Shown here piece by piece: positions 28 through 33,120 of a DNA stretch of 64,000 bases; the stretch's first letter is position 1; each line of letters opens with the position of its first letter. Made by a program: the position numbers and the translations under genes. Location: the IMG/VR virus record IMGVR_UViG_3300014039_000013, positions 64,001 through 128,000 of that record; one strand, written 5' to 3'. This DNA is from a virus (taxonomy: Duplodnaviria > Caudoviricetes). Under the pieces are notes generated by a model. That model was not told where the DNA came from. It saw only the letters and a list, made by a program, of their open reading frames with translations, and ran no database searches.

Positions 28-786
28 TTATTCTATTTTCCAAAAATAACCCATATACATTTTACGTTTCCCTTTTATCACCTAATTAATTTTTCCTTTA
101 TTCGGAATTTCTAAAAAATCATACGCCTCTTTCATAGAATTAAATATGTGTTTTTCAGTACTATTATAAGCAATTAGATGATCAAATTTTATGCGTCCGA
201 ATTTTTTAGGATCAGGGGTGATTTTATCTAACTTTTCATATCTCCAAATAAAAGACGCACATGTTCTTCTCTTATTTTTGCAACATTCTGAAATATGACA
301 GGCGTTATCTAAAGAAATATTTAATGCTTTACAAGCTTCTCTAATACATTCATATTCTTGAATAAATTCTCCAGTATCCTTATTATACTAATATACTTTT
401 ACAGATTTATTATTATTAACACTGTAACGTACTGGAGGATTTTCTCCACCTTCTGTAATATTTGTTAATACATCACCTAGATTCTATTTAATCCAAGAAA
501 TTATATAAATTTCATTATTCAACGCATCTGATTCACTAGAATTTGTATTTAAAATTACAAATTTAGGAAAATAACCTCCCTATTTTAGTTTTAATAATAA
601 ATTCTTTTTATGTGGATTAGAATCACACCTAATATTACCTGAGCGATAGTGATCTGTACATCTAGTTCCAGAACCCTTACCTACATAAAATGGAAGGTAT
701 TCAAATTTAATAGAATTAAATTCCCAAGTAAAAGGCTTTCTTGGATCTAATAATATATAATTATAATATTTATTTTCCTGCTACAT
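28..786 (-). CDS. Free-standing GIY-YIG homing endonuclease with NUMOD1 domain, TAG-recoded (252 aa, 5 in-frame TAG)
   Basis: Manual translation: M*QENKYYNYILLDPRK...FYVGKGSGTR...LTNITEGG...KVY*YNKDTGEFIQEY...ISECCKNKRRTCASFIWRY. Open to TAA at 28-30 if TAG is sense; absent from the ORF track. Confidence 0.85.
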
Positions 787-2444
787 AATTCCCATTTTCA
801 TCCAAGTTAGTACTTCCAAATCCACCCGTACCTCGCTCTGAATCAGAAAGTGTTTCTACCTCGTTCCAATCAATATGAAATACAGGCATTAGAACTGCTT
901 GTGCAACACGTTCCCCATCTTCAAGCCATACAGTTTCCTGGCCTTGATTCACTACAGGCAAACCCCACTCATTTCTATAACCCATTTTGTAATTTACTCA
1001 GAACTCTTTATTTCTGACTCTAAAATTTCTTCTATAGATTTATTATATCCATCTATTGTTATATTTTTAGTTTGGACTATATAATCATTAATAATATTAC
1101 ATATATTATTAAGCAAGGCACTCGTGTCAGTATTACTTTCCTCAGCTTTACCTGTTCGGAATCGACTGTTAGTCTCTGAACTTTCAAAAATATTACTATT
1201 TAAGCTTAGCTGCTGATTGTCCACTTTTGGAGTTTCCAGCAATTCACCTTGTTTAAGGACGCCAATTATATTATGAATGGAGATTTCTGCAATTTGTAAT
1301 AAATTATTATGTATTGTTTTATGTTGTTTTCTTGTTAATGGAATAAAATTTGAAAGAGCATTATTCGAATGATTTCCATCTATATGATGCACGTTTATAT
1401 TATATTTAGGATTGAATTTTACAATCTTATTTTCTTCTTCGAAAAATACATTATTAAATTTTTTATGATTCCGAAGAACATTAAGCCTGTGTTGTGTAAT
1501 TCTCCCATCTTTGTTAGAATCTGGATATTCTGGAGCGTATACAAACATATCTTCAACATGATTATTCTTCTTTGGTAATGCTCTGTCTTTAAAAGATGCA
1601 TTTATTTTTCCTTTTAATCCATATTGATGATTATTTTTTCCAATAAATGTTGTTTCTTTTAGTTTAGAAGCGCATTCTTTACTACAACAAGGTGTTGATT
1701 TTATACGATTGTAAGAATAGGGTTTTAACTTAAATTCTTTACCACAAATTGGACAGATACAACTAATTTTTTGAGAATATCGTTCACTATTATATTTAGC
1801 AAGACATACTACAGAACAACAATGATAATTCTTAGCTCTACATGGAAGTACATATTCTTCTTTACCACAAGTAGCGCAAACAACTTTAATTCTTTCAACT
1901 TTTGTACCAATCTTTTTCCCTTTTCTTCCTAAATTTGAACATTCCTTACAGCAATATTTTCTTTTACTACTTTGTTTTGCTTCAAATTCTTTTCCACAAT
2001 ATTCACAAATAAATTTTGCCATTAATTATTAATTTTATATTTAACATACTATAAATATAAAATTAAATTAGTAAATTTACACGGAACTATTAATAATTAA
2101 CAAATTTTAGCGTCCACCGTGCCTACACAGTTAATCAAATTTAGACCATTTTTGATACTCAAACCACTTCTTGGACGTAGCTCAACCTGCCATCCTTCGG
2201 GGATAGCTGTAAATATACCAGTAGGAAGAATAGCTCTAGCACCTGGTTCAAGACGAATCATTGTTTTAGAATGAGCTTCACCTGCAAATATAACTTCGGC
2301 ATCACCAAATACTTTAATAGGATTTTCTGGAGTTGTTCTACTAAAATCAATACGAATATCACATCCAGCATCTCCTTTTGTAGCATAATTAGGAAGTTTA
2401 TTTTCAGATTTGTTAATCACATTTACAGTTATTTTCTTTTCCAT
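770..2444 (-). CDS. dut: dUTPase, split by a group I intron (exons 2109-2444 and 770-982; 182 aa)
   Basis: Motifs AGCD, RPRSGL, GTVDA|GYRNEW, ERVAQ and RGTGGFGST. The exons join in frame across motif III. Confidence 0.93.
983..2108 (-). mobile_element. Group I intron in dut carrying an HNH ORF
   Basis: 5' exon ends in U (GCT) and intron ends in G (ATG). The ORF C-terminus (QGELLETP..NQQLS..SSET..YIVQT) reads through typical group I core sequence. Confidence 0.85.
994..2022 (-). CDS. Intron-encoded Zn-finger HNH homing endonuclease
   Basis: Three CxxC...CCSxxC repeats and VHHIDGNHSNNALSN..H...H. Confidence 0.85.
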   Translation of the reverse strand: MAKFICEYCGKEFEAKQSSKRKYCCKECSNLGRKGKKIGTKVERIKVVCATCGKEEYVLPCRAKNYHCCSVVCLAKYNSERYSQKISCICPICGKEFKLKPYSYNRIKSTPCCSKECASKLKETTFIGKNNHQYGLKGKINASFKDRALPKKNNHVEDMFVYAPEYPDSNKDGRITQHRLNVLRNHKKFNNVFFEEENKIVKFNPKYNINVHHIDGNHSNNALSNFIPLTRKQHKTIHNNLLQIAEISIHNIIGVLKQGELLETPKVDNQQLSLNSNIFESSETNSRFRTGKAEESNTDTSALLNNICNIINDYIVQTKNITIDGYNKSIEEILESEIKSSE

Positions 2445-2700
2445 AGTTTTTAAGTAGATTATTTAAAGAATTAATTACGTTTTCAGCTTCTGAATAAAAA
2501 GCTTTAATAATTTTATTATCTTTATTTGTTATTACAATAAATGGATCTAATTTAGCACTACAATAATTTTTTATTTTCCATGCTTTTTTCTTTGTTTTTT
2601 TAGATTGTATATCTAAAAAATTAACTTTATAATTCTCTAAAATCTCAGAATTAATTTGTTTAATTTGAGATTCATCATTATAAATAATTGTAATTTCCAT
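2413..2700 (-). CDS. Hypothetical protein
   Basis: 95-aa ORF overlapping the dut start, in operon orientation. Confidence 0.6.
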   Translation of the reverse strand: MEITIIYNDESQIKQINSEILENYKVNFLDIQSKKTKKKAWKIKNYCSAKLDPFIVITNKDNKIIKAFYSEAENVINSLNNLLKNYGKENNCKCD

Positions 2701-2751
2701 TATCCTACTAATTCATAAATAGGAAGAGTTGAATTAACTACCCAATCAAAT

Positions 2752-4092: not shown

Positions 4093-4451
4093 AAATTGGT
4101 TTCCAAATATTTACATGTATTCTTTTATGATTTGGGTCTATAAGCCAATCTATTGTATTTAAATCAAATCCTTGACTTTTAATATATTCTTCTATTTCTT
4201 GTTTGCTTTCAAGATTAGGTGCTGTTTTAATAATATCTACACACAAATCTTTATGATTAAGAATTGCTATTTCCATATTGTGTTGAATTTCTAAAATTAA
4301 TATTTAACTCTTGATCTTCTACTATCATATAATAACATTCATTCTCGTTATAATGTTGATGAAACCAATCTTCTTCTGAAACATTAGTTTCTTTAAAATC
4401 AATTATATCAACACTACAATCTTCGTAGTTTAATACTATAATCTTAGTCAT
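4076..4451 (-). CDS. Two tandem paralogous small hypothetical proteins (4257-4451 and 4076-4276)
   Basis: IIVLNYEDCSVDII versus IAILNHKDLCVDII. Confidence 0.6.
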
Positions 4452-4609
4452 TTGTAAACCCTTTAATTGATGTTTTATTAGTATTTTTTTCTTCTCCTAA
4501 TTCCTCTCTAACTTTGACATTAGTTGTATATCTAATATCTTGATAGATGGGTTTATTAAAAAGATAATGAGTTATATTACATATTGCTTTTCCTTTTTCA
4601 AAGTACTCT

Positions 4610-5155
4610 TTACCTTCCCTTTTGTAAATCATAAAGTATTACTGTGTTATTATTAATAGACTTCTTCACATCAATAATTCTTTGATTTGAACTACCTCTC
4701 CAATAAAGATTTAAATCCTTTCGTTCTTCTATAAATTTACCATCAATGAGTACATCTATATAATTAAGAACCTCGGGTTCATTTTTTAATATATCTTCAT
4801 AAAGATATCCAGTCCATAACCATACTGGTTTGTTAGAAGCCTTACACATTTTCAATAATATTCTAACATTAGAAATACTATCTGCTATATAATCACTATC
4901 GAAGTTTAAATCATCCTTCATTATCCAATATAAAGGATCACCTCCTAATATAGAGATACCATCAATTTTTGGATTATCCACACATCTCTGAATTTTATCA
5001 GCAACGTCTATAAAATTAACTCCTGCTAATGGATTCCAAGTCTGAGGAGACCAGCATCCTTTACAACGGTTATTACATCCTGCTAACCAGATACTGCATC
5101 TAATTCCAGGGCCATTAACAACATCATATTGTTGATACTTTAGTATTTTAAGCAT
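4610..5155 (-). CDS. nrdG: Anaerobic ribonucleotide reductase activase (radical SAM)
   Basis: DVVNGPGIR, CNNRCKGC, GGDP, DVLIDGKF, RGSSNQR; adjacent to nrdD. Confidence 0.95.
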   Translation of the reverse strand: MLKILKYQQYDVVNGPGIRCSIWLAGCNNRCKGCWSPQTWNPLAGVNFIDVADKIQRCVDNPKIDGISILGGDPLYWIMKDDLNFDSDYIADSISNVRILLKMCKASNKPVWLWTGYLYEDILKNEPEVLNYIDVLIDGKFIEERKDLNLYWRGSSNQRIIDVKKSINNNTVILYDLQKGR

Positions 5156-5447
5156 TATTTAATATATTTTTGATTATATTAAGATTTTCATTTGATAATG
5201 GATTTAATTCTAATTGTTCAGTTATTTCATTATACTGATCTAGAAAATCACAATATCTTGGATCATATCCTTCAATATTGCTTTCAAAGACATTTTCACT
5301 AAACATATTATTTTCAATATAATTAATTATATCTGATAAAGTAAAATACCCATCATGTCTAGCTTCATTAATTATATCTTTTAATAATTTAGGCATATTA
5401 AATGTTACCTCGGTTGGTAAATTTAATAATATAGTAATATTATCCAT
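5148..5447 (-). CDS. Hypothetical protein
   Basis: 99-aa ORF between nrdD and nrdG. Confidence 0.55.
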   Translation of the reverse strand: MDNITILLNLPTEVTFNMPKLLKDIINEARHDGYFTLSDIINYIENNMFSENVFESNIEGYDPRYCDFLDQYNEITEQLELNPLSNENLNIIKNILNNA

Positions 5448-5454
5448 AAGTATA

Positions 5455-5484
5455 TAAAAATAGCCAGATTTTACTCTGGCTATT
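5455..5484 (-). terminator. Intrinsic terminator after nrdD
   Basis: ATAGCCAGA-TTTTAC-TCTGGCTAT hairpin with a T-run on the minus strand. Confidence 0.65.
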
Positions 5485-5490
5485 ATTTTA

Positions 5491-8400
5491 TTAAAAATGT
5501 TTTACGCGATTATTTATGTCTGCTATTCTTCCTTTAGAAATACCATTAGTTAGAATACCAATATCATTTATACCCCACCTTTCAGTGTATTTATTTTATT
5601 ATTAAAATAAATTTCTATATTATTTTTTTCTATATCCGAAAGCTTACTAATTTCAGATTGAATTACTTTGTCATTTTCTTTAAATCTAAATTCTTTTTGA
5701 AAATAAACTTCACATAAATAACGTAAATATACAGCTTCTTCTTTTTTATTAAATTGCTTAAAGTAATATCTTACATTTTTATATCTAAAGTCTATTTTCC
5801 ATTTAGAATTAGATTTAATTTGAATAACTCCTCGAAATCCTGATTTATTATTTTTACATTTATCCATATTTAACTGGTTGTCTTCTTTATTTATAATACG
5901 TAAATTAGATTTACGATTATCTAAAGAATTTCCATTAATGTGATCTATTTCTTTATTTACAGGATTTCCCATTATCAATCTATGAAAATATTCTTTTTGT
6001 GATATTTGATTACCTGTAACCAGATATGGTTTTTCACCATTATCTTTTAATATGGTTCTCCATTTAAATTTTTTAGCTTCTTCTAAATTATCTTTATCAA
6101 ATATATATGTAAATAATACATTTCCGTGTTGGTCATATGTATCTATTTCACAATAATTGTCTAATACTCGTATTTCATTTGGATCAAATACACCTCTTGA
6201 ATTTGTGTCTAAATTATGTCCAAATTTTATAAACTGATGCATATGTTTTTTTACATAAAAACATATTAAATTTTTTACTGTAATTGACAATTTTTTCATC
6301 TGAAGATATTCCACAAATATCACAAAATTTAGTAGTTTTTCGCATATAAATATAGTTTAAATTAGTAATAAGGGATTAGACTATACCTTCATCTAAATTA
6401 GATGCGCCTTGGTAGTCGTTGAGAGCTTCCCAGTAACTATATAAATATACGTATATAATTTGGGATTCCAAAATTATATTAACATTTAGTTAATAGGCTA
6501 TCTCTGCTGATTGTCCAATTTTCTTAATTTTTTAACATTCAAGCTTATTCTTTACAAATTACTTTGTAGTTTAAGAAACTTTAGGAGTTTCCAGCATATT
6601 CAGCGTTTTCTATATATATCACTATATAAAGGGGCATATTAGTTTACCCGCATAACCTGCGTTCTGCATACAATTTATGTCTATCGGTCTCTCCACAATT
6701 AGGACAACTAAGATTACCTTGATTATCCATATGAATTTCTCCTTCATAGCCACAAGTATAACATACATCGCACGAAGTGGTATTTAACTCACAGTACATC
6801 ATATTATCATAAATACATTTCATAATATTTAGTACTGCTTCTGGGTTTTTACGTATATCTGGCATTTCGCAATAACTTATACACAATTTTTACTTTTTAA
6901 TTTATTAACTACATACTCTTTTATAGATAAAAACTGAGATTTTTTAATTTTATTTTTAATAATTTTTTCTTTTTTCTTTTGTTCAGAAGTATTTTGAAAC
7001 TCTTTAAATAATATTTTCTCAGCAATATATCTAGCACATACAGCTTCTTCTATTGTATACCATCTACATAAATGTATTCTACTTTTACCAAATCGAATTT
7101 CTGCTGCCCATTGATTTCTTGATTTATCTAAATATACACCAATGTAATTAGAAGTATTATTAGACATAAATGTCTTATTGCAAACATTTTCAAATTGTTT
7201 ACAAATACGTAGATTAGACCTACAATTATTTAAAGGATTACTATCAATATGGTCAACAACCTCATCATCTTTCGGATTTAATAATATTCTGTGAAGCCAT
7301 GTTGTTGGATTTGTTTTTGTACAATTTCCTGTAACAATGTATCCTTTTGAACTTAGTCTCCATTTTTTATATTTAATTAAATCTATATCAGATTTATCTA
7401 TTATAAATTCTGTAACCTTTTCATTTCTTTGATTATATACATTAAATATTGCAATATCATTTTTAATAATATAATCATTAAAATCATTAGTTGTTCTAGG
7501 ATTATTGTCTAGAGGTTTACCATATTTATGTATTTGATGCATATGTTTAGAGCATACATCTTTATATCCTTTTAAAGTATATACTTTTGTATTTTTTCTA
7601 TTACATATACTACATGTGCCTATTTTTATTGTATGTGACATAAATTAAAAATTAAAATTAGACTATATCTTCTTAGTAGCGGAATCCGCCTTTTAAGCTG
7701 TGCGCTTGGAATAGGTAATCACTTCCTATCCTACAGGGTTACACTCATCACCCTTAGTCGTTACACCTTCAAGAATTAAAAAATTCAAGCTTGGCACGGT
7801 ATTATCAAAAAGACTTCACCGTTAGCTATTTATAAAAATAACACCCTTGATTAAAAGTTCACACAGTTTTAGGAAGCTGTATTACCAACCTCCTGATGAA
7901 TATTCTTGAAAAGGAGCTTCAAATTCTATCTTTGAATACCCATCAATCTTATATTCTACAGGTATATGATAGCTATTAGTTATATAATCTCTATCATTAA
8001 CATGTTTTTCTATAGGAAATTGTTTTAAAGCATTAGCAAATTTAGTAACAGTGGCTTCTGCAGGAGTACCATATAAAGATAATGCTAAATGATACTTTTC
8101 TTTATTTAAATTAGTTCTATCATACATATGTTTTAATATATCAAGACCTAATTGTTGTCCTTCTTTAGTGCCGTACTCTTTACCAAAATGATAAACACAT
8201 TCTGCAATACCCATATAACCTATAGATGCAGAACAATATTCATCTTTAATAGCTTCACCTATTTTACTTCCTACAGGTAATCTTGCAAAAGCCCCATAAT
8301 TCCAAAGTATAGGAGCTACATCTGTATTTACATTAGATATTTGATTAAATATCTTATTTTGTTCAGAGGAAATCTTATCAATTATATCATCTAACTTATT

Positions 8401-11400
8401 TAAAAAATCATTATAATCTTTTGATTCTAATGCTAGATAAGGTAAATTGATAGAAATTACACCAATGTTTACAATCGATCTCTTATTACTAAGAGGATTA
8501 GACTATCTCTTCATTGTTATTTTCAACAATGCTGTGCACTTCGGATAGTGATAAATTCTATCCTACTGGCTTACACTCATCAGCCATAGTCGTTACACTT
8601 CTAAAATGTTCTAAATTTTTAATATTACCATAATCCAGAACTTCATATCTTTTATTAAACCATTGTCTAATAAACCAACGTTTAATAGAACCATTTTTAG
8701 AAGAATGTCCATCGTATTCAATAAATTTAGATAAAGGGCAAAAAGTTAGCACTGCGTTATTATTTTCTTTATCTTTAACAGTAATATACTTTATACTGCT
8801 TATTTTATGACCATTATTATAACAATCTTTTATATTATCTTTTTGATCACCTATGTGTAAATTTTCAACTCTATTATCTAAAGAGTTATCATTAATATGG
8901 TTAACTTGTTCTCCTTCTTTTAATGGCCTCATCCATACTTCTGCAATAATTCTATGCAATGCAATATGTTGTTGTTTATGTGTAGTTTTATTAAGAATGT
9001 CTATATATTTATACATTTTATTTCTTGTTTTTCTACACATTGGTTTTAATAAAGTTTTTGAATAAACAGAATATACATCACCTAATTTATTTACATAATA
9101 CCAAGTGTCTCTAAACTATTTAAATTCTTGTTCATTAATAATTATAGTATTCATACTCAAAAATATTTTTGTAGTTTATAATTTTAAAAGCACGGTATTG
9201 ACCCATATAGGTTTTCACCGTTAGCAAGCAATTAAGCTCACACCGTTTTTTCTTACGTTCACACAGTTTAATGACGGCTAAACGATTTGGTCAACCGTCC
9301 CCAGAATTTATACTTACCATCTTTATCTTTCCAAGGATGAAGGAAACTTCTGCACATTTAATCATTTGTCGCCAAATGAACTGACTATATATTCTACATT
9401 TATGATGTAGTCTCCTGTTTCGAGTTTGTGCTTATCTCAAACTCTACTGGCTTACACTCATCAGCCATAGTCGATACACATTTAGGAATATTTTATTCCA
9501 TTTAGCACGGTCTCATCTTATTTAAAAGACCTAACCGTTAGCCCTTAAAGGACACCTCTAAGCGAGTTAAGGAGATTTTACATGGGCTACATATTTCACT
9601 TACCCATGCTTGGAAAGACATTTCCTTCTTTATATTTCTTCATAATCTTAGCTGAAATATAATCAGGAACCATTCTTTTGCATGTACATTCTGCTGCCAA
9701 CTTAGTTACATCATAGTATTTAGTTCCAGGATTTATATTATCTTCATCAAGAACATAGATGAGTTTCAATTTGTTAATCAATATGTTTCCATATTGTTCA
9801 GACTATCTCTTCAATGTGTGGCGCTTCGTAATTAGGGGTTTCACCTAAAAACTACTTCCGTTTCAGGAATAGTCGTTACACTTCTTCTTTATATTTCCAA
9901 ATATATCCGTATGCTGATTTTGCTTTTCCATTACAACAAGCACTTATATTACTGTTTGCTTTTGGATTGCTTGTTAAATCTTTCGTTATAAGCCATTTTG
10001 TAGCTTCGGTCATACTTTTAAATTCTTGTAGGAATTTATTACTTAAATCATACTGTTGTATAGCTTTCCATAAATGAAGTTTTGGTTTTTTAAATTGAGC
10101 CATCATGTTATCACTTACTTTTCTATCATTAAATGACCACTCGTATTGAATATTATATGATGTAGTACACCATTCTAGATTTTTTACATCATTATTTAAC
10201 GGATTACTATCTTTACGATTTATTACTTCATAATTATTTGGATTAGGAATAAAAGCAAAAGCCACAAGTCTATGAACTAAAAATTTGCGAGTTTTATTAT
10301 TAATTCTTAAATCTACACATTCATAACCTTTATTGTTTATATAAGATTTTAAGATTTTTTCTTTTATTTTATAATATCTATCATGTCCAGTATCATAAAC
10401 TAATCTTGATAAAGATTTAATTTTACCTGATTTACTCACAGCATAATTTTCAGTTATTCCAGTTAAAACTTTAAACTTTTCTTCCATATATAAATATTTA
10501 GCACGGTATTATCAGCTATCTATATTATAGACCTTAGATTCTCTTAGTCAGTATATTCGTGAATTATTTATTTTCCCTTATTTCCACTGATACCGTTAGC
10601 ATTAATTAATTAACACACCCTGTATTTACAGGTTCACCACATTTTACTTCCCCAAACAGTTTTAGGGAAGGCTGGATTAATGATATTTCCATTAGGACCC
10701 TTCATTCCTTTAATCCTTTGATTAAATATTTCTTTTATAAGAGCTACATTCTCTTTAGCATAATTATCATTCTCATGTATATAACAGAATACAGAGCAAA
10801 ATGGGCTTTGCACGCCCTCTATATGTTACCATATAGTTTAGACTATCTCTTCACCCTCATCATTACATGTTAGGGGTAAGGCGCTTCGTAATTAGGGGTT
10901 TCACCTAAAAACTACTTCCGTTTCAGGAATAGTCGTTACACTTTCTCTATTATTTATAGAGCTTAGCACGGTATTAACTACATATTTATATTTTTCTAAT
11001 ATATTATCATATATTTTTGGAGCTTTTATATATTGAATAATATGTTTTTCTCCATATCTAAATTTATGATTAAACAAAGAATCTTTTTCTTCTACAACAT
11101 GTACGAATACTTTCTAATTTAAATCTAGTTAACCTCGAAGCTGATTCAAGATCTTTATATTTCTTATTTTCAGTAAAATCAAGTATATAGTTTACATTTC
11201 GTTCACTTATAGGAAGGTTTACAATAACAGGTTTATCGTTTTCTAAATATCTATATATGTTTATAAGCAGAGTGTCTATCTCCTCTTGCTGATGCGCATA
11301 TTTTTGTTACTCCTGATGCACCTAATCCTAAATGAATACTGGCTTCTGTAGCACTATCAAATATTTCTCCAGTTGTTATGTCAATAATAGGTTTAGAAGA

Positions 11401-13963
11401 TGGACTTAATTTACCTTTTTTACCATACATATGATTTTTACTGCCAAGTTGTGCTTCACCTATTTTCTTTTTGGTTTCTTTAGAATGTTTACCTGTTGAA
11501 TTTCCACCATTTTCTATATTATATCCAATATTATGATCCTGTGTATTAAATTCTAAAATATATTTTGTTTCTAATATATTCATTTCTTCTTGAGTTTCTA
11601 TATTATCTACTAATATTTCAAATTCAAAGTTTTCAAAATCATATTTTTTTATTGCTTTTATAATAGGTCTAGATGTGTCTGGAGATTTAAATTTAGTATC
11701 AGATTTATAATTTCGTATTCTGTCTTTTAATTTCTAAGTTGTTTGTCCAATATAAATTTTATTGTTGATTTTATTAGTAATTTTATAAATTAACATAGTC
11801 TTCACCGTTAGCATTAATAATTAAGTTATCAATGTAAATGTATGAAATTTATGGTCAATATCAAAATTATTAACACACCCTGCATTTACAGGTTCACCTT
11901 ATAATAATCTTATAAATTACTTTATAAGACGGCCAAATTGACCATTCGTACTTGTCATTGAGTTAAGTTGATAAAGTAATGTTTGCATACTATCAACTAT
12001 TTCTTTATTCAGAAACTTGTTTACAAGCTTATTTTTTTCATTTGGAGATAAATCCTTAAATTGCTCTTCGTAATATTCTTTACTACTGCGAACAAATGGT
12101 GCTAAATGAGCTAAAGTAATACTTACTCCCACCAAAATATAATTTGTATCTTATATAATGGCAGACTATTTCTTACAGAAATTTGTATTTTTCTGTGGAC
12201 ACGTTTCCATTAAATTTTAATTTAATGTACTCTCTTTCGAGATAGTCGTTACAATTATATTAATTTATCAATAACTTTAATATTATATTTTTCAGGATTG
12301 TCTATATATCGTCTAGCTTGTGTTTCAGATTTACCTATAAATCTAGCGTAAGCAGCTATAGTTTTAAATATATATTTATTATTATAAATAATTGTCCATC
12401 TATTAGGAGTTCCTATATTTTTCTGTCTTTTTAATTTATTATATGCGTGTAAATTATTATAAGATTGAGAAACCCATTCAAGATTAGAAGCATCATTATT
12501 CTGAACATTTCCATCTTTATGATTTATAGTATTATTAATTTCACTATATCCATCACAAAAATTAAATCCAACTAATCGTGCTACTTGAAGATTTTCTTTT
12601 TTATCATTATTACATAAAGTTACATAAAATCTATTAGATTTTTGATTAGGGCTTAATGTTAATAAATAAAATTTGTTATAACTTATAGCAAAATGTTTAA
12701 CTCTACCTTTATTAGAAATTTCATAACCATCATACCCTAATATGGGTTTCCAGATTTCTCCTTCTATAGGTTCTATATTATAAAGTCTAGAACTTTTTTC
12801 TATCTTATCATTTATAATATTATTATGTTTTTTAGATAACTTTTCTCTATATTCTTCTACAGCACTTATTAAATCATTATCTAATTTATAAGTATACAAT
12901 AACTTAGAATAAGGTATATTAATTTCTTTAGAAATATCTTTTAAAGAAATATTATTTTTTAATCTTGATATTATTAGATTTTTATACTTATTTATAAATT
13001 TCTTGTTAGATGGAGTTATTCTTTTAACTTTTAATTTTTCAAATTCCCAATCTTTTAATTGTAGTCCTAATTTCTTTCTATTTAATTTTAATAAATTACT
13101 GATATATACTGTACTTTTGCCTTCTTTACAGTATAATTGATATATAGTATCTTTTAATTCTAATATTTTGTTATTCATAGCATTCCACTATTTAAAATTA
13201 ATATAATCACGAGATTTAAATATTCCATTTATCCCTCGTTAGCTTTGAAACTTAATTCAAAACCCTTATTAGGTTAGTGTCCTTTTAATACGGCAGATTA
13301 AAATGGGAAACCGTATTGGCTCGAACTTACGGCAACAAGTATTTGAGTTGCAATGGTTGTAGCCGTTCTTAGTGAATGAGGCTTTTCGATGAGTTTGCCA
13401 TTAATAACTGTTCCATTTTGAAGCATATCTTCTAAGTTAATTAATGAGCAGTTGCTCATTCCATGCATAAATCTATAATCTGTATCATGAATATGGATTG
13501 CACCTTTTTCATGTAATTTAAGTAGTTCTTTGTTACACTCTAATTCTTTATATAGCTTCTTGCAAACTTCTCCAGCTACTAAATCGCGCATTACATTAAA
13601 TTGTTTAGGATTTTTATTTCCATTTTCATTAGTAACCTTGTTAGTTTTTCCAGAAACTATTTCTTCAATAGTAGTATTAAACTTATTAGAATCAGCTATA
13701 TTCCTAGCAAGTTTATGCTTATATCTATAAAGAATATACTCTTTTGCTACTTGTTGATAATCATAATTCATAAGTAGCTCTTCTATCTGATCTTGTATTT
13801 CTTCAATACTCATCTTATCCCAAATATAAACAGAATTATATATATCTTCTATAACAGTGCTATTAATATCTATTTTACACTGTTTAAAAGCTCTATACAA
13901 AGCTGTTTTGATTCTATTGGGATCAAATTCCTGTAAATTACCTTTTCTATCTGTAACTTTCAT
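5491..13963 (-). CDS. nrdD: Class III anaerobic ribonucleotide reductase in 8 exons (13310-13963, 11941-12129, 10664-10810, 9602-9766, 9294-9354, 7888-8471, 6646-6883, 5491-5564); 703 aa spliced
   Basis: N-terminal ATP-cone. Junctions restore QYG|GVS, NG|QSPF, AFP|KLIY, MG|CRSFL, GRL|NIGVISINLP, SGG|CISY and RRLCG|YIG. Every 5' exon ends in U, every intron ends in G, and the total length is a multiple of 3. Confidence 0.92.
5565..6645 (-). mobile_element. nrdD group I intron 7, inserted immediately after the glycyl-radical Gly codon
   Basis: TGC GGG T|AT ATT GGT junction; core motifs TGCTGGAAAC, AATCAGCAG, CAACGACTA, GGTATAGTCTA. Confidence 0.85.
5568..6345 (-). pseudogene. HNH-AP2 homing endonuclease (intron 7) with an apparent +1 frameshift in an A7 run
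   Basis: The true start MRKTTKFCDICG...FLCKK joins HMHQ only if one A is removed at 6246-6252; the intron 6 paralog reads CSKHMHQ. Confidence 0.7.
6877..7641 (-). CDS. HNH-AP2 homing endonuclease (intron 6)
   Basis: LHRILL..VDHIDSNPLNNCRSNLR; NNTSNYIGVY...W.AEI...EEAVCAR (AP2-like). Confidence 0.88.
   Translation of the reverse strand: MSHTIKIGTCSICNRKNTKVYTLKGYKDVCSKHMHQIHKYGKPLDNNPRTTNDFNDYIIKNDIAIFNVYNQRNEKVTEFIIDKSDIDLIKYKKWRLSSKGYIVTGNCTKTNPTTWLHRILLNPKDDEVVDHIDSNPLNNCRSNLRICKQFENVCNKTFMSNNTSNYIGVYLDKSRNQWAAEIRFGKSRIHLCRWYTIEEAVCARYIAEKILFKEFQNTSEQKKKEKIIKNKIKKSQFLSIKEYVVNKLKSKNCV
6884..7887 (-). mobile_element. nrdD group I intron 6
   Basis: GGT|TGT junction. The ribozyme core lies in the 5' ~240 nt; the ORF lies in the 3' part and runs across the 3' splice site. 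Confidence 0.82.
8472..9293 (-). mobile_element. nrdD group I intron 5
   Basis: CGG T|TA AAC junction; core motifs as in introns 2-4. Confidence 0.85.
8498..9154 (-). CDS. HNH homing endonuclease (intron 5), TAG-recoded
   Basis: MNTIIINEQEFK*FRDTWYYVNKLGDVYS is in frame with track ORF 8558-9040 (LHRIIAE, VNHINDNSLDNRVENL). A second TAG at 8558 reads on to TAA at 8498. Confidence 0.8.
9355..9601 (-). mobile_element. nrdD group I intron 4 (247 nt, no ORF)
   Basis: Separates MG from CRSFL. Core motifs GCTAACGGTTAGG, ACCGTGCTAA, ATCGACTA, ATATAGTCAG. Confidence 0.85.
9767..10663 (-). mobile_element. nrdD group I intron 3
   Basis: U|...G boundaries; core shares 64 identical nt with intron 2. 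Confidence 0.85.
9876..10487 (-). CDS. NUMOD4-HNH-NUMOD1 homing endonuclease (intron 3)
   Basis: YAVSKSGKIKS, VHRLVA, INRKDSNPLNNDVKNLEW (catalytic His replaced by Arg), IQQYDL..EFKS, AYGYIWKY. Confidence 0.85.
   Translation of the reverse strand: MEEKFKVLTGITENYAVSKSGKIKSLSRLVYDTGHDRYYKIKEKILKSYINNKGYECVDLRINNKTRKFLVHRLVAFAFIPNPNNYEVINRKDSNPLNNDVKNLEWCTTSYNIQYEWSFNDRKVSDNMMAQFKKPKLHLWKAIQQYDLSNKFLQEFKSMTEATKWLITKDLTSNPKANSNISACCNGKAKSAYGYIWKYKEEV
10811..11940 (-). mobile_element. nrdD group I intron 2
   Basis: U|...G boundaries; core motifs GCTAACGGTGAA, AATACCGTGCTAA, GTAACGACTA, GAGATAGTCTA. Confidence 0.85.
11233..11796 (-). CDS. GIY-YIG/NUMOD3 homing endonuclease (intron 2), TAG at codon 21; 3' part apparently frameshifted
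   Basis: MLIYKITNKINNKIYIGQTT*KLKDR is in frame with track ORF 11251-11583 (GYNIENGG, HSKETKKKI). Coding-like sequence continues in shifted frames toward ~10900. Confidence 0.8.
12130..13309 (-). mobile_element. nrdD group I intron 1
   Basis: U|...G boundaries, group I core-like motifs (GTAACGACTA, AAATAGTCT), internal HNH ORF. Confidence 0.85.
12255..13178 (-). CDS. NUMOD4-HNH homing endonuclease (intron 1)
   Basis: EIWKPILGYDGYEISNKGRVK; INHKDGNVQNNDASNLEWV. Confidence 0.88.
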   Translation of the reverse strand: MNNKILELKDTIYQLYCKEGKSTVYISNLLKLNRKKLGLQLKDWEFEKLKVKRITPSNKKFINKYKNLIISRLKNNISLKDISKEINIPYSKLLYTYKLDNDLISAVEEYREKLSKKHNNIINDKIEKSSRLYNIEPIEGEIWKPILGYDGYEISNKGRVKHFAISYNKFYLLTLSPNQKSNRFYVTLCNNDKKENLQVARLVGFNFCDGYSEINNTINHKDGNVQNNDASNLEWVSQSYNNLHAYNKLKRQKNIGTPNRWTIIYNNKYIFKTIAAYARFIGKSETQARRYIDNPEKYNIKVIDKLI

Positions 13964-14024
13964 AATGTATAAAATATCCCAGACTATAAAATATATATTT
14001 ATAATCTGGGATATTCAATATAAA

Positions 14025-20336: not shown

Positions 20337-21318
20337 GTATTTTTAATATTTCATTTTTTATAAATTCAAATGTTTTTACTTTTCCATATTTTTTGTGAAA
20401 ATCTGAAATATCTTTTACTTTATACTTATTAGGAATAAAAAAATATTTTAATTCTGGATGTTTTTTTCTAATTTTTGCTAAATTATATTTACCAGGTCTA
20501 TCATTATCATAAAATACTACAATATATTTGAAACGTTCTTTTAATTTATTTAATACTTTTTCTTCTATAAATAAATTTTCAGAACAAGGTGCTATAGCTG
20601 CAATTCCAAATGAATTCAGACACATAACATCTTTCATGCTTTTTGTAATTATTAATAATTTTCCTGATTCTGGAAGTTGTTTCCAACCTTGAATTTTATC
20701 CTTATCCCAATTAGCTAAAAAACGATAAGATTTTCTATTTGGAAAATACATTCTCCAATATTCGATTCCATCTTTTTTACCACCATAATATCCATATATA
20801 GGACATTTTGAATTTGATGAAGCAAATATGTTTCCATTCAAAAATACAGTCTTTACAGAATATATATGAAATTTTTTTAATTGTTTTTTTTCAACTCCAA
20901 ATTCTTTCCACCATTTTAATTGTTCTTCTGAAAATGGTTGTAATTCTGCTTGTAAAAACGTACTTTGCTTAATTTCTAAATCATGAACGATAGATATCTT
21001 TTTTTGTTTTATATTATCAGATTTAATTAACCCAAAATCTTTAGCAATAATGCGTAATGCTTTATAAAAATTGCAATTATAAATATTCATTACAACTGTA
21101 AAACAATTGTAATGAATATTTGTTGCAAAATCATGAAAATATACTATTCCAGATTTAGATTTATAAAATGCAGCAGTAGGTTTATGATCATTACGTAATG
21201 GATTTACAAATAGTTTTTTAGATTCTACTGGCAAATTTAAATAAAATGATAATATACTTTCTTGATTAATTTTTGATAATATAAATTCTTTATTAATAAT
21301 TGAGACATTAAAATCCAT
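20317..21318 (-). CDS. DNA primase (Toprim)
   Basis: NPLRNDHKPT, HDF, ITKSMKDVM, FYDNDRPG, KDISD. Confidence 0.8.
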   Translation of the reverse strand: MDFNVSIINKEFILSKINQESILSFYLNLPVESKKLFVNPLRNDHKPTAAFYKSKSGIVYFHDFATNIHYNCFTVVMNIYNCNFYKALRIIAKDFGLIKSDNIKQKKISIVHDLEIKQSTFLQAELQPFSEEQLKWWKEFGVEKKQLKKFHIYSVKTVFLNGNIFASSNSKCPIYGYYGGKKDGIEYWRMYFPNRKSYRFLANWDKDKIQGWKQLPESGKLLIITKSMKDVMCLNSFGIAAIAPCSENLFIEEKVLNKLKERFKYIVVFYDNDRPGKYNLAKIRKKHPELKYFFIPNKYKVKDISDFHKKYGKVKTFEFIKNEILKIHDKTNS

Positions 21319-21332
21319 GTCTCAATTAATTA

Positions 21333-22034
21333 TTAAAGATTATCGATTTCGTCTGACAAAGAGCTAAAATCTAAGTTTTCTAAATTATCATTATTAGACG
21401 ATGTATCGGTAATTTTAGTTGGTTTTGCTGAAGAATAATTAGCAGCTTGTCCAGCTTCATATGCTGTAAATGCAACATTCGTACCAACAAAATTATTTCT
21501 AACAAATGGTTCGTCATCGTTTCCAATAGCAGTTACATATGGGAAGTCTGCGTATACAGAACCATCACGATTTTTACCAATAAGTTTAATCTTTGTAGAT
21601 ACTCCTTTTTTAGCATTAATAATTTTTATCAAGGAATCTACAAATTGGTCCATTGTTTTAATCTTATTGGCAACTTTCTGAAGTTTACTAAATCCATCAG
21701 AATTAATAACTTGTGCAAGTTGCAACAACGTCCATTTAAATTCTTCAAAACGAGATGGTGTTGGATATGTTGATCCATCTTGTCTTTTCATTTGACCTCG
21801 TTGAGAATTTTCTGGAGTATCGTCAGGAATAAATAGATTTTTAATAAATCTTCCCTCTGAATTACTAAACGATATTTTAATTGTTTTATATGTTATACTT
21901 TCATCATTCTTTTTATGAAGCTCTTCGCGTTCAATTCCATCGAATTTGACATCATAAATACCCCAAGGCTTCAAGAAAGATGAAGTATTGATTGCTGACT
22001 TATTTTCAAAACTACCGAAATTAAAATTGCTCAT
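21333..22034 (-). CDS. Putative single-stranded DNA-binding protein
   Basis: Acidic C-terminal tail; lies between an AAA ATPase and the primase. Confidence 0.55.
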   Translation of the reverse strand: MSNFNFGSFENKSAINTSSFLKPWGIYDVKFDGIEREELHKKNDESITYKTIKISFSNSEGRFIKNLFIPDDTPENSQRGQMKRQDGSTYPTPSRFEEFKWTLLQLAQVINSDGFSKLQKVANKIKTMDQFVDSLIKIINAKKGVSTKIKLIGKNRDGSVYADFPYVTAIGNDDEPFVRNNFVGTNVAFTAYEAGQAANYSSAKPTKITDTSSNNDNLENLDFSSLSDEIDNL

Positions 22035-22048
22035 ATTATTTATATTTT

Positions 22049-22621
22049 TTAAAAGTTAAAATCCTGTGCTGTTAAATCATTATCATCTATTAAATCAGAA
22101 AGTTCTAAATCATCATCAGACAAATCAATGTCTGGTTCATCTGAAGGTAATTCTATATCATCACTTGCTTCTACTTTTTCTGGTTGTTTATCACCAATTA
22201 AAAAGAAAACACCTTCTTGTTTTTCTTTTAGCTGAAATGCATTTCCATATTTGCTAAGCTGTTCATTTGCTTTTCCTCTACAACTTACCGTAAATGATTT
22301 AGTAACTTTGTTACCACCATTATTCCCAAATAATTCAGCTTTTCCTATGATTGGTGTTAAATTACCTTCATATTGTTCATAATTAATTTCAAGCTTATCA
22401 CCAGGAATAATATTAAGTAATTCAACAGATGCATTATTTAATTTGTATTTATTATCCTCTAAAATAATTTGAGGATTAGAGTTGTCGTCTTTAGTTTTCT
22501 TTACAACCTTAGCTTTAGAAGTTTTATTAAATTTTCCTTCTTTAACTTCTCCAGTTTCTGTATTAATTATTTCAAACTGACCAGTTGTTGTATCAATTGT
22601 AAAATTAAATATTAATTTCAT
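22049..22621 (-). CDS. Hypothetical protein with acidic C-terminal tail
   Basis: 190-aa ORF in the replication operon. Confidence 0.65.
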   Translation of the reverse strand: MKLIFNFTIDTTTGQFEIINTETGEVKEGKFNKTSKAKVVKKTKDDNSNPQIILEDNKYKLNNASVELLNIIPGDKLEINYEQYEGNLTPIIGKAELFGNNGGNKVTKSFTVSCRGKANEQLSKYGNAFQLKEKQEGVFFLIGDKQPEKVEASDDIELPSDEPDIDLSDDDLELSDLIDDNDLTAQDFNF

Positions 22622-23319
22622 TAAATATCAGAATTTTCAAATTTATTAATAGTATCAACTATTTCTTTCATATTAGGTTCTACATATTTATCCTTAAAAC
22701 ATCCTGCAACACTTCTACAGGTGTCATTGCCATCTGTTCTAGTCTTAATATGATATTGAACCTCGTCTTCGCCATCGGGAATATATCGTTCTGCATATAA
22801 CAAATAACTAAACAAACCATCCAAATTAATCTTAGAGGTTAACATTTTACCACTTGTATATAATCTCCAACTTGGATCTTCTTCTGTTCCGCAGTTTTCT
22901 ATATGAGAGATAAATATTACAGTAATATCATCTCTTAATTCTAGTGACAATTCAATTAAATCATAATAATTCTTAGCTTGGATCGTGAATTTTTCATATC
23001 CTTTAACTAATGCATCCTTAAAAGTAGCATTACTAAGTAAATAATTAGCATCATCTATAACAAGTACCTTTATATCAGGACGTGAACTAGAAATAGCCTT
23101 CATAATCTTTTGAATAGTCCCATATTCATTAGATACCAACCAATTGCCAATAAGCTTACCGTCTTCTACTTTTACTTTTTGATATTTTTTACGAAAACCT
23201 GGAATTTGTAGTTGTTTATTAGTACAACTAATAATAAATGTTGATTTTGAATCTAGATACTTTAATGAAGTCGATTTTCCACTATTTGATAAACCGCATA
23301 ATCCTAAAAGTGCACTCAT
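22621..23319 (-). CDS. AAA/Sak4-like ATPase
   Basis: GLSNSGKS, LVIDD, FISH. Confidence 0.8.
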   Translation of the reverse strand: MSALLGLCGLSNSGKSTSLKYLDSKSTFIISCTNKQLQIPGFRKKYQKVKVEDGKLIGNWLVSNEYGTIQKIMKAISSSRPDIKVLVIDDANYLLSNATFKDALVKGYEKFTIQAKNYYDLIELSLELRDDITVIFISHIENCGTEEDPSWRLYTSGKMLTSKINLDGLFSYLLYAERYIPDGEDEVQYHIKTRTDGNDTCRSVAGCFKDKYVEPNMKEIVDTINKFENSDI

Positions 23320-24997: not shown

Positions 24998-25069
24998 AGT
25001 TAAAATAGTGTTTTAACTGTAATTTGGGTAATTTCATTTCTGAATGTATACAACTACATATAATTATAA

Positions 25070-27231: not shown

Positions 27232-27237
27232 AATTTT

Positions 27238-27570
27238 CTATAATATTATTGTTTCATTTTTATCTATTTTTATTGGTTTATCTATAAAATTTAAAAATTG
27301 ATAGCCACTATATTTATAAGGAATAAATTTATCGCCATCATACCATTTATCTACTCCAGCGTTATGCAGTTCGTAAGTTAAATATCCAATATCATCTATT
27401 TGAATATCTCTACATTGCCAATTTGGGAATCTTACGCACCAAATATATTTTGACCAAATGCTCTTTTCTTCAAGATTTTCAAATATATATTGAATATATC
27501 CTAAAGTATCATTTTGTATTGCTTTTAATTGTGCTAATACTGTGTTTCTTTTTAAAGAGTTTGCATCCAT
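27238..27570 (-). CDS. Hypothetical protein ending in TAG, in frame with the next gene
   Basis: TAG-AAA-ATT-ATG junction at 27240-27229. Confidence 0.6.
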   Translation of the reverse strand: MDANSLKRNTVLAQLKAIQNDTLGYIQYIFENLEEKSIWSKYIWCVRFPNWQCRDIQIDDIGYLTYELHNAGVDKWYDGDKFIPYKYSGYQFLNFIDKPIKIDKNETIIL

Positions 27571-27666
27571 ATTTGGCAAAATCACTTATACATCTTTCCA
27601 TGCCTTCAAAGCATGGATAATGGTTACAATCTTTACAAGATAAATCAGGTCGTTTTATTTGACCGA

Positions 27667-30817: not shown

Positions 30818-30910
30818 ATACCAAATCTTTTAAAGAATCAAATAATTCTTTTAAGAGATTATTCATTTTAAATTCTAGATCATTAACAAATTCATCTGTC
30901 CATTTATCAA

Positions 30911-31297: not shown

Positions 31298-31695
31298 TAT
31301 TTAAATAAATCACGATTCTGGATTAGATTATATAAAGATTTTCCAATCCATTCCACAAGAGGTTCATTTGCAGATTCTGTATCATATTGTCCTTCACTTA
31401 ATATAACGTGTACTAATTCATGATAAAGAGTTCTACTTTGAGTTATTAATGGTATTGGGCTTCCATTTAATTTTGTAGCTATCCAAATTTCTCTTTTGTC
31501 ATAATGTGTTTGGCCAAAGAAAAAATTATCTTTATTACTTGGTATTTCGTCTACATATTTAATTACCCAATTTACATCTAAATATTTAAAAGGTATATTT
31601 TTAATTATTTTCAACTTTTGTGAATTGGCCATAAGTATGATTATTAATAATTGGTTTGTGGTTTTGAGGATGTAACATTTCTGTTCCATCTTCAT
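31297..31695 (-). CDS. Small HExxH metallopeptidase-like protein
   Basis: FFGQT...I.I; TLYHELVH; NEPLV. Confidence 0.65.
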   Translation of the reverse strand: MKMEQKCYILKTTNQLLIIILMANSQKLKIIKNIPFKYLDVNWVIKYVDEIPSNKDNFFFGQTHYDKREIWIATKLNGSPIPLITQSRTLYHELVHVILSEGQYDTESANEPLVEWIGKSLYNLIQNRDLFK

Positions 31696-32529
31696 TAAGT
31701 ATTAGAATTTTACAAAAAGAATTTCTTACTTCTTGTATAATTCCTTTATGATTTAAATCATTTGTATGTGTTCTAGTAATTTTAACTTTATCACCTACAT
31801 TCCAAAGTTTCCAATTTTTCATTTAATATAAAATTTTGATAAAATCCAATAAATAATTTTTCTATACCATAGTTCATTATCTAAGTCTACATCTTTTGTA
31901 TGTTTTCTAAATAAATGTAAATCGTATAAAAGATTATGAGCTTTCCATTCATTTATTAAACTTGACATAGAACGTTTATTTACTATATAATCATTTAATA
32001 AATAATCATATCTAATTTGCTAAATTAAACGTTCCATATCTTTAGTTTCTTTTACTTTATATGAATCATATATTGTAACACAATTCGGAGTTACATGATA
32101 TTTAATTTTCATTTAAATAATTTATGAAACCTTCAAGAATATCGGCTTCAGTTTGGTATAATGATTTAAGTTGTTCAGAAGTAAAATTATCTTTTAATTC
32201 TGAAATAGTTTTTATTTTTTCGGCGTCTCTTAAATCACATACTTTATTATCTTTTGTCAGTCCTATTATCATAATTTGAATATCTTGTTGGGCTTAATTT
32301 CTATAAATTAGTATAATCTTTCGATGTAGTAGTTTGTTTCTATAATTTTTGATATTGTTTTTCTTGTCAAAGACTCTAGTTTCTATCAATTTTTACATCT
32401 TTATAACCGTGTTTCTATAAAAATTTTTATTTATCTTTTATTTTCTATTTTTAGAGGTTAAAACAGATGACATTGGATTGGCACTACTATCAGCAGGTAA
32501 TAATGATAACCTCATCTAAGCTTTAGGAA

Positions 32530-33120
32530 TTATTTGCATAACTTAACAATAGTATTATAATGAATATCAACTATAGTTTGTTTACCTTTTTCTGAAAGAA
32601 GAAAGTCTACATCTTCTTTATTATCTTGAAAAAGATTTTCTGTAAGAACAGCAGGACATTTAGTGTCTCTACACATTGCTAAATTTTGTACCCAATAATG
32701 TTCTTTTGGAATTGATCTATTACCTTGTTGATTTAATTTTAAAGCTTCGTCATAAAGAGTTTTAGCAAGTAATTTAGAATTATTTGAAGCGTTTAATGAT
32801 ACAAATACAGACCATCCTTTAGCAGAATGCCATTTACCATCGCCACCAGCAGCATTACAATGTACTGATATTGAAATTGCATTTTTATTATTTTTTAGAT
32901 ATTCAGAATTTATTCTTCTACATCTTTCTTTTAAAGATATATCAGTAGCTTCTGGTGTAACTATAAATACTTTGTATCCATTATCTATCAATTTCTTAGA
33001 TAATAACTATACTATTTCTCTAGCATAACTATATTCTTTAAGTTTTTTATCAGGAGAACACTTTCCAGGAGTATTTACTCCATGTCCATTATCAAGACAG
33101 ATTAAAGTTTGTTTATTCAT
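32530..33120 (-). CDS. N-acetylmuramoyl-L-alanine amidase (Amidase_3) endolysin; one in-frame TAG (33007-33009); 196 aa
   Basis: LDNGHGVNTPGKCSPD..LKEYSYAREIV*LL...SVHCNA...AVLTENLF. The Zn ligands H and E lie upstream of the TAG. Confidence 0.9.

Follow-up and report, generated by a model that had tools for sequence, protein, structure and literature searches.

The window, a stretch of 64,000 nucleotides, is part of the genome of a ~160-kb crAss-like (Zeta-like) phage that reads TAG as glutamine via its own tRNA(CUA). The single 5'-proximal amber codon of a resolvase-like gene in its replication arm is probably best explained as a selected translational lock, with the TAGs of the homing endonuclease and amidase genes representing ordinary late-type codon usage. 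An earlier note on this DNA had proposed an amber gate on hazardous genes in general. The idea survives for the resolvase, which carries TAG in 14 of 15 sequence clusters, but not as a general gate, because the stretch has 13 nuclease or lytic genes, of which 8, among them five HNH homing endonuclease genes, are TAG-free.

The virus is a gut phage, and its record comes from metagenomes only. Neither a late protein nor 25 kb of arm DNA found a match in a deposited-phage collection, and a helicase search found crAss-like and other gut phages as the only nearest relatives. Late and other ORFs outside the arm contain 435 TAG and 975 CAA/CAG codons (TAG is 31% of Gln-type codons), with a load that reaches 53 TAGs in 3123 codons, whereas the 67-kb replication arm has 15 TAG against 491 CAA/CAG (3%). 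The same late-rich and arm-poor split is seen in four relatives. Residues aligned with TAG in the relatives are Gln in 436 of 787 well-aligned pairs (55%), a 20.7-fold enrichment. Late-gene TAG sites turn over fast: 2 of 636 TAG columns hold TAG in all five genomes. The suppressor tRNA, identified by ARAGORN and Rfam, is encoded about 30 kb from the resolvase gene:

50254–50343, plus strand: tRNA with anticodon CUA (amber suppressor, long variable arm)

It is flanked by two TAG-free ORFs and heads a TAG-rich block. The relatives G002–G004 also encode tRNA(CUA); a search for it in relative G005 was negative, yet TAG is used in that genome. Some arm genes employ TAG as a real stop (for example, 17428–18453 and 27238–27585). 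As internal TAG is almost absent and TAG stops are soon backed by TAA or TGA, the replication arm reads alike with or without suppression. The TGA-recoded relatives use TGA throughout the arm and so give no parallel test.

The earlier note had named five nuclease and lytic genes as the TAG-bearing members of an otherwise TAG-free range. All five have in-frame TAGs at the codons it had assigned to them, and all are on the minus strand. The arm is TAG-poor, as the counts above show, but one further TAG-bearing ORF, the fifth in the following list, had been overlooked:

28–786, minus strand: free-standing GIY-YIG + NUMOD homing endonuclease gene, TAG at codon 2 and four more
8498–9154, minus strand: HNH homing endonuclease gene in the fourth intervening sequence of nrdD, TAG at codon 13
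11233–11796, minus strand: GIY-YIG + NUMOD3 homing endonuclease gene in the second intervening sequence of nrdD, TAG at codon 21
19755–20336, minus strand: Hjc-like PD-(D/E)xK nuclease gene with an N-terminal zinc ribbon, single TAG at codon 30 (20249–20247)
31819–32112, minus strand: ORF of 97 codons with no assigned function, TAG at codon 31
32530–33120, minus strand: Amidase_3 (N-acetylmuramoyl-L-alanine amidase) endolysin gene (PF01520, PHROG 435)

No Pfam family or membrane segment was detected in the 97-codon ORF. The nrdD gene is split into six ordered pieces and the dUTPase gene into two, in different frames and with endonuclease ORFs between the pieces; Rfam intron models did not match the split nrdD/dUTPase region, even at E up to 1. 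The exon map moves the HNH gene 8498–9154, formerly assigned to intron 5, to the fourth intervening sequence and leaves the GIY-YIG gene 11233–11796 in the second, where it had been placed before.

The free-standing GIY-YIG gene, whose start overlaps the 3' end of dUTPase exon 2, begins with ATG (786–784) followed by the codon-2 TAG (783–781). Further TAGs are found at 582–580, 486–484, 390–388 and 84–82, so that 5 TAG stand against about 3 CAA/CAG. Its frame runs for 252 codons without TAA or TGA, which at this base composition has a chance probability of about 3e-8. The encompassing ORF (28–873) matches LEM-3 GIY-YIG (33.8 bits), NUMOD1 (42.7) and an I-HmuI NUMOD-like domain (31.3), all above the cut-offs. 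In the GIY-YIG gene of nrdD, the codon-21 TAG (11736–11734) falls within the catalytic domain, at a site occupied by Gln in the closest homologues, and a second TAG lies 6 codons ahead of the TAA stop; ORF 11233–11814 matches GIY-YIG (34.9 bits) and NUMOD3 (31.3 bits), above the cut-offs. A survey of GIY-YIG homologues found no close orthologues. The HNH gene has its codon-13 TAG at 9118–9116 and a second one near the 3' end (8560–8558). The Pfam- or PHROG-matched region includes the TAG in every one of the five genes except the HNH gene, where it is 4 residues before the PHROG match, within an N-terminal motif common to the paralogue at 9876–10487. No usable start codon was found 3' of the TAGs in the five genes, which indicates that these TAGs are sense codons and not products of mis-called starts.

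Other nuclease genes in the same stretch, on which the earlier note is silent, do without TAG. Besides the five HNH genes, which are counter-examples to a general gate, two exonuclease genes and the gene for RNase H are TAG-free:

994–2022, minus strand: HNH endonuclease gene in the dUTPase intervening sequence
5568–6323, minus strand: free-standing HNH endonuclease gene downstream of nrdD
6877–7641, minus strand: HNH endonuclease gene in the fifth intervening sequence of nrdD
9876–10487, minus strand: HNH endonuclease gene in the third intervening sequence of nrdD
12255–13178, minus strand: HNH endonuclease gene in the first intervening sequence of nrdD
17428–18453, minus strand: exonuclease VIII-like gene without internal TAG (TAG stop at 17430–17428, TAA 7 codons on)

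The exonuclease VIII-like gene, TAG-positive in 5 of 5 genomes, was considered as a second gated nuclease and rejected, because its TAGs are either the stop or upstream of the conserved start. Likewise, the primase gene and several more genes of the arm were discarded as TAG-bearing candidates, their TAGs being terminal. In this genome TAG is present in 5 of the 13 nuclease or lytic genes versus 1–2 of 30 others, a modest enrichment (Fisher p=0.007–0.02). The first TAGs had been described as lying near the N-terminus; the codon positions are right, but the bias alone is not significant in this genome (p=0.06–0.16).

The gene at 19755–20336 is a probable Hjc-like Holliday-junction resolvase gene, as judged from profile comparisons and a structural model. 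A profile of 19 homologues matched Hjc chains weakly (E=5e-4 to 5e-3) over the C-terminal 110 residues. Pfam Hjc matched 1 of the 19 members and PDDEXK_15 matched 6, every match being below the curated cut-off. AlphaFold models the C-terminal domain with a pLDDT of 78–91, and the top Foldseek match, a weak one, is Hjc 1gef (E=0.03, probability 0.87, TM 0.47 by target). Residues E86, D112, D117 and K132 are invariant in the family, which shares the motif order Glu ... Asp ... x-Lys with archaeal Hjc (PDB 1gef, 1hh1, 2eo0; PF01870) and Pfam PDDEXK_15. In contrast to Hjc, the third and last acidic position is taken by an invariant Gln (Q130-x-K132), and the protein has an additional DNA-binding domain at its N-terminus, which is a zinc ribbon here and NUMOD-like in most relatives. 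We refer to this gene as the resolvase on account of its putative junction-resolving activity.

The resolvase gene follows the primase gene:

20317–21318, minus strand: DNA primase gene, TAG-free, overlapping the resolvase start by 20 nt

Given this 20-nt overlap of the primase 3' end with the resolvase ATG, the two genes are almost certainly co-transcribed. In the relatives, the primase ORF ends 1–28 nt past the resolvase ATG, and the resolvase TAG is kept with or without a primase frame overlapping it. In this genome, codon 4 of the resolvase is CAA, TAG accounts for 1 of 13 Gln-type codons, and the next possible start after the codon-30 TAG is codon 111.

A single-sequence search revealed no relatives of the resolvase; an alignment-based search recovered 31 TAG-type loci, which together with this genome make 32 long-form sequences, the most divergent pairs sharing 30% identity. 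TAG is present at codon 3–7 or 29–30 in 31 of these 32. Among the TAG-type relatives, exactly one 5'-proximal TAG is found in 24 of 25 unique resolvases, or 14 of 15 clusters at 80% identity, and the remaining Gln sites are CAA/CAG except one; the invariant Gln column of the alignment has 24 CAA/CAG and 1 TAG. The sequence 5' of the TAG is conserved, and internal TAG is almost absent from the flanking genes. In lineage L141 the TAG has given way to AAG. The resolvase of standard-code and TGA-recoded relatives is of a short form that lacks such a codon. Codon 4 reads CAA/CAG in this genome and in L127, where the TAG occupies codon 29/30 (codon 29 in L127); L128 combines TAG at codon 4 with CAA (Gln) at the codon-29/30 site. 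The TAG of this genome has shifted from codon 4 to codon 30 and was not lost. We consider it fairly likely that the 5'-proximal amber is under purifying selection as a lock on the primase-co-transcribed resolvase, the codon-30 TAG having replaced the lost codon-4 TAG.

The amidase matches PF01520 with 99.6 bits (cut-off 27) over residues 7–191, spanning the TAG, and PHROG 435 (endolysin) at 8e-43. Its single TAG, codon 38 (33009–33007), encodes a variable residue. The earlier note had extended the gate to this gene, an extension that fails in the relatives: the TAG is missing in the nearest one, which has the same gene order, and in others the amidase is within the TAG-rich late block, with 0–4 TAGs at varying positions. 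No lysis cassette was detected around the amidase, as the adjoining small ORFs lack membrane segments and no holin-like protein is encoded next door. Across five genomes, with the endonuclease gene starts in relatives taken as called, TAG occurs in 11 of 18 homing endonucleases, which is an enrichment; those of the relatives have 2–8 TAGs each, at sites that are not conserved.

Passive late-type codon usage or horizontal origin, in which the genes are translated late in any case or come from TAG-using regions or phages, with TAG tolerated and drifting at Gln sites and no selected gate, would account for the TAGs of the homing endonucleases and the amidase. The TAG density of the free-standing GIY-YIG gene is that of late genes or above, the shifting sites in the relatives' homing endonucleases and amidases fit drift, and homing endonucleases differ between close relatives (PMC12386605). 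As an explanation of the resolvase codon as well, passive usage is possible but rather unlikely: it leaves unexplained why the resolvase has its one TAG at a fixed 5' site in nearly all clusters, why the rest of the gene uses CAA/CAG like an early gene, and why the TAG moved from codon 4 to codon 30 and was not lost.

Before UAG is decoded, the host release factor would be expected to end translation of the TAG-bearing arm genes after 1 to 37 residues. The resolvase and the free-standing GIY-YIG gene each have their start within the 3' end of the TAG-free gene before them. The proposed lock would confine the resolvase to the suppressor-active phase, presumably late in infection, when branched DNA presumably needs resolving for packaging. 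In the homing endonucleases and the amidase, TAG would have the same consequence but would not represent a conserved gate. We infer that the suppressor tRNA acts late, that translation is delayed and that the delay is beneficial.

An early TAG could instead limit dosage, inefficient read-through throttling the amount of a toxic nuclease during the entire infection, with no timing involved. Structure-specific nucleases are needed in small amounts, and starts that overlap upstream genes also cut the yield, as with the overlapping starts of T4 endonuclease genes (PMC2988022). However, late ORFs with 43–53 TAGs need roughly 96% or more read-through per codon for their yield to be useful. Late proteins with about 50 TAGs would imply near-complete suppression late in infection, so that a single TAG would act as a switch and not a throttle: before suppression a near-complete block is expected, and once it is on, one TAG barely cuts the output. 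We regard dosage limitation as improbable. That the genes are decayed or their starts mis-called, so that the TAGs are true stops or lie 5' of the true start, is very improbable: homing endonuclease genes often decay, and the N-terminal TAGs of the exonuclease VIII-like and DNA polymerase genes of relatives do precede the true start, but here the frames are interrupted by TAG only and stay free of TAA, TGA and frameshifts (for the GIY-YIG frame, p about 3e-8), in all of the five genes but the HNH gene domain matches cross the TAG, start codons downstream are lacking, and the sequence 5' of the resolvase TAG is conserved.

Being hazardous is not enough to tell which genes are locked: the HNH endonucleases are ungated, and the amidase has no conserved TAG. 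The resolvase amber provides a simple experimental handle of one codon. For annotation, gene callers that apply one code per block miss or truncate the resolvase-like nuclease.

Recoded stop codons as a switch for late or lysis genes of phages have been described by Borges et al. (bioRxiv 10.1101/2021.08.26.457843), Yutin et al. 2021 (PMC7886860) and Peters et al. 2022 (PMC9523058). Borges et al. found amidase and spanin preferentially recoded in crAss-like phages, which agrees with the remark in the earlier note that lysis-gene gating had been proposed before. For TGA-recoded Agate phages, they also reported an early gene with a recoded homing endonuclease in its intron and reasoned that the endonuclease is withheld until late; homing-endonuclease gating, of which the earlier note knew no description, had therefore been described already. 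The idea of gating for lysis and homing endonuclease genes is already published, and the case for it is weaker in this genome. No published description of an amber-gated resolvase was found, and the word "resolvase" is absent from the Borges, Yutin and Peters texts. The phage resembles the recoded phages of these studies in its suppressor tRNA, TAG read as Gln, TAG-full structural and lysis genes and standard-code replication genes. In contrast to the bulk recoding reported there, a statistical codon preference by family, here one arm gene has a site-conserved single 5' amber in an otherwise standard-coded operon. The main basis for proposing that recoded stops delay late genes is the location of bulk recoding; a positionally conserved single amber in a standard-coded gene comes much closer to showing that a stop codon is selected as a regulator and, if this reading is true, would be direct evolutionary evidence that recoded phages time individual genes in standard-code operons by single stops.

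Such timing would also parallel the use of RNA hairpins by phage T4 on gene 49. In T4, hairpins silence genes of late function on early transcripts, namely e, soc, 49, I-TevI/II/III and segB, and keeping ribosomes off the intron also protects splicing of the genes that host intron endonucleases (PMC3014915; PMC2988022). The gene classes are alike in the two phages, with lysozyme, the endonuclease VII resolvase and both intron-encoded and free-standing homing endonucleases of T4 carried on long early-gene transcripts. The T4 genes are kept untranslated until late, and a matching effect is proposed here for the resolvase. The systems are not homologous: in T4, the ribosome-binding site is hidden in a hairpin that late transcripts lack, whereas in this phage initiation would be free and elongation would be halted at UAG until the suppressor tRNA is available.

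The window spans bases 64001–128000 of a phage record of 160,403 bp, with 27% G+C and a 50-bp terminal overlap. Its closest database neighbours are crAss-like and other gut phages, and its size, its split coding and the density of its intervening sequences suggest the crAss-like 'Zeta' group of Yutin et al. (PMC7886860). Translation with TAA and TGA as the only stops opens long TAG-filled ORFs: the window has, for example, ORFs of 911, 1069 and 468 codons, and outside it there are ORFs of 2879 and 3123 codons that contain 43 and 53 TAGs, respectively. Orthologues from four relatives have Gln opposite TAG in 55% of well-aligned pairs (20.7-fold enrichment), so TAG is read as Gln in this phage. 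The minus-strand arm of replication and nucleotide-metabolism genes (genome 46101–113510, window −17899 to 49510) has TAG at 15 of 506 Gln-type codons (3%); outside the arm the figure is 435 of 1410 (31%). At the head of a TAG-rich block, flanked by two TAG-free ORFs, lies a candidate suppressor:

50254–50343: tRNA with anticodon CUA, 90 nt, long variable arm, labelled 'Pyl' by ARAGORN

TAG aligns with Gln despite this label and the long variable arm. The relative G005 (IMGVR_UViG_3300013383_000001) uses TAG heavily in its late genes; no anticodon-CUA tRNA is present among its four ARAGORN tRNAs. The TAG-poor arms of relatives hold islands of two to four function-unassigned genes with 5–12 TAGs each; the islands of the genomes G003 and G004 directly adjoin a second tRNA(CUA) gene:

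G004 19315–22993 and G003 129229–133637: TAG islands (loci L100/L101, L124)
G002 4194–7423: TAG island (L091)

Five genes of the arm stretch carry an in-frame TAG, each at the codon reported in the earlier note:

786–781, minus strand: ATG-TAG start of the free-standing GIY-YIG/NUMOD gene, with four further TAGs
8498–9154, minus strand: HNH gene, TAG at codon 13
11233–11796, minus strand: GIY-YIG gene, TAG at codon 21, within the catalytic domain
19755–20336, minus strand: resolvase-like gene, TAG at codon 30
32530–33120, minus strand: Amidase_3 gene, TAG at codon 38

A 97-codon ORF (31819–32112), also with an in-frame TAG, had been missed. The TAG lies inside the domain match in four of the five genes and just before the PHROG match in the HNH gene, and none of the five has a start codon downstream of the TAG able to yield a shorter product. 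Gene decay can be dismissed, because TAG is the sole interruption of these frames; at this base composition, 252 codons free of both TAA and TGA would arise by chance with a probability of about 3e-8. Several arm genes have TAG as their first stop, followed by TAA or TGA 3–20 codons on, and the primase and exonuclease genes of relatives likewise end in TAG with a later TAA or TGA. Arm genes of this kind in the window are:

17428–18453: gene ending in TAG (17428–17430)
27238–27585: gene ending in TAG (27238–27240)

UAG read-through would add only a short tail to such genes, and the arm thus seems composed to function under either code.

A conserved amber codon in the resolvase-like gene is the robust result of the comparison with relatives, which covered four whole genomes (G002–G005) and 40 loci from an alignment-based search. 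In the long-form set (this genome and 31 TAG-type loci), an in-frame TAG is found in 31 of 32 resolvases, 24 of 25 unique sequences and 14 of 15 clusters at 80% identity; all the evidence is comparative, and many of the metagenome-assembled phage records behind it are mutually close, a non-independence of the counts that clustering reduces but does not remove. For this gene the comparison supports the interpretation in the earlier note, a single 5'-proximal TAG being retained. Pairwise identity among the long forms has a median of 57% and a minimum of 30%. The TAG stands at codon 3–7, in a Met-x-Lys-(Lys/Arg)-x-TAG start, or at codon 29/30; no rescue start follows, the next candidates being at codon 87–172. 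The remaining Gln sites are CAA or CAG, with a lone TAG, against 24 CAA/CAG, at the invariant Gln of the catalytic region, and internal TAG is almost wholly absent from the seven conserved upstream genes and from the downstream genes. The exception, locus L141, has AAG at the TAG site.

As a baseline, the turnover of TAG sites in late genes is rapid: of 636 columns that contain TAG, only 2 have it in all five genomes, and of 27 Gln-type sites with TAG in G005, G002 shares the TAG at only 12. Codon 4 of the resolvase gene is CAA here and CAG in the nearest relative (the contig of L009/L127), with TAG at codons 30 and 29, respectively; in the resolvase of locus L128 (58% identical), codon 4 is TAG and the other site is CAA. 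In the lineage of this genome and its nearest relative, the TAG has been relocated without loss. It is retained with or without overlap with the primase frame, and no T-to-C change, synonymous in both frames, was seen at the overlapped TAG. Standard-code (G006–G009) and TGA-recoded relatives have a short resolvase form with no such codon. In the sister group L129–L137, TGA stands for Trp throughout the replication genes, primase included, and the short resolvase lacks the N-terminal DNA-binding domain.

The protein is probably an Hjc-like PD-(D/E)xK nuclease with predicted junction-resolvase activity. A profile of 19 homologues matches archaeal Hjc resolvases in the PDB over the catalytic core (E=5e-4 to 5e-3), the AlphaFold model is confident at residues 81–193, and the best Foldseek matches, although weak (E=0.03, probability 0.87), are Hjc structures; the Pfam matches, PDDEXK_15 and Hjc, are both sub-threshold. 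E86, D112, D117 and K132 are invariant in the family, whereas the usual last acidic residue is replaced by an invariant Gln.

The earlier note proposed a gate on the DNA-cutting and lytic genes of the arm, and TAG is modestly enriched there (5 of 13 such genes, versus 1–2 of about 30 others; Fisher p=0.007–0.02), but two exonuclease genes, one RNase H gene and the following five HNH homing endonuclease genes of the same stretch are TAG-free:

994–2022: HNH gene
5568–6323: HNH gene
6877–7641: HNH gene
9876–10487: HNH gene
12255–13178: HNH gene

With 40 CAA/CAG codons and no TAG in total, the codon use of these HNH genes is incompatible with late-type usage, and TAG in homing endonucleases is not a rule. 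The N-terminal position claimed for the first TAGs does not reach significance in this genome alone (p=0.06–0.16). Across five genomes, with starts in relatives as called, 11 of 18 arm endonuclease genes have internal TAG (3/8 here, 4/4 in G002, 1/1 in G003, 2/3 in G004 and 1/2 in G005), often 2–8 each, which is late-gene density. Four TGAs occur in distant GIY-YIG homologues from crAss-like contigs with TGA recoding.

The nrdD gene (within 5568–13963, minus strand) is split into six ordered pieces (Pfam NRDD positions 1–104, 107–156, 155–207, 204–262, 273–471 and 471–541) by five intervening sequences, each with one homing endonuclease gene; the TAG-bearing HNH gene, previously assigned to intron 5, sits in the fourth. 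Rfam found no group I intron in this region, even at a permissive threshold. The dUTPase gene is also split (exon 1, 2097–2444; exon 2, 770–985; minus strand), with its RGxxGFGST motif in exon 2 and the HNH gene 994–2022 in its 1.1-kb intervening sequence; Rfam intron models gave no match to 770–2444. The exonuclease VIII-like gene borders an ORF-free gap (18490–18800) that separates it from its neighbour, and Rfam gave no match to this gap even at a limit of E=1.

The amidase, surveyed at eighty IMG/VR loci, lies within the TAG-rich late block in related 150–190-kb genomes, where it has 0, 1, 2 or 4 TAGs at differing positions and the residue at the TAG site of this genome varies. In the nearest relative it lies in the arm beside the tRNA cluster, as here, but without TAG. 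Given this absence and the varying positions elsewhere, the amidase TAG is lineage-specific.

Separate transcription of the resolvase and free-standing GIY-YIG genes is unlikely, since each of them starts within the 3'-terminal part of the TAG-free gene before it, and control has to act at translation. Without suppression, the resolvase product would stop at 29 residues here and at 2–6 residues in relatives. Some 96% or more read-through per codon would be needed for late proteins that have about 50 TAGs, so that a single TAG would have almost no effect with suppression on and be a nearly absolute block before; this would favour a switch over a throttle. We infer the timing, the harm from early expression and the substrate of the enzyme.

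Parts of this scheme are already published, namely the split-code late-switch idea, lysis-gene recoding and intron-endonuclease recoding. Borges et al. (bioRxiv 10.1101/2021.08.26.457843) reported preferential recoding of amidase and spanin in crAss-like phages. They also described a preferentially recoded intron endonuclease, located within an early gene, and interpreted it in the same way; the endonuclease counts above agree with this, and the novelty claimed for homing endonucleases does not hold. We found no mention of a resolvase in the texts most relevant here. T4 silences the same gene set on early transcripts, namely lysozyme e, endonuclease VII (gene 49) and intron-encoded and free-standing homing endonucleases, by means of a hidden ribosome-binding site, which for the intron endonucleases additionally protects splicing (PMC3014915, PMC2988022).
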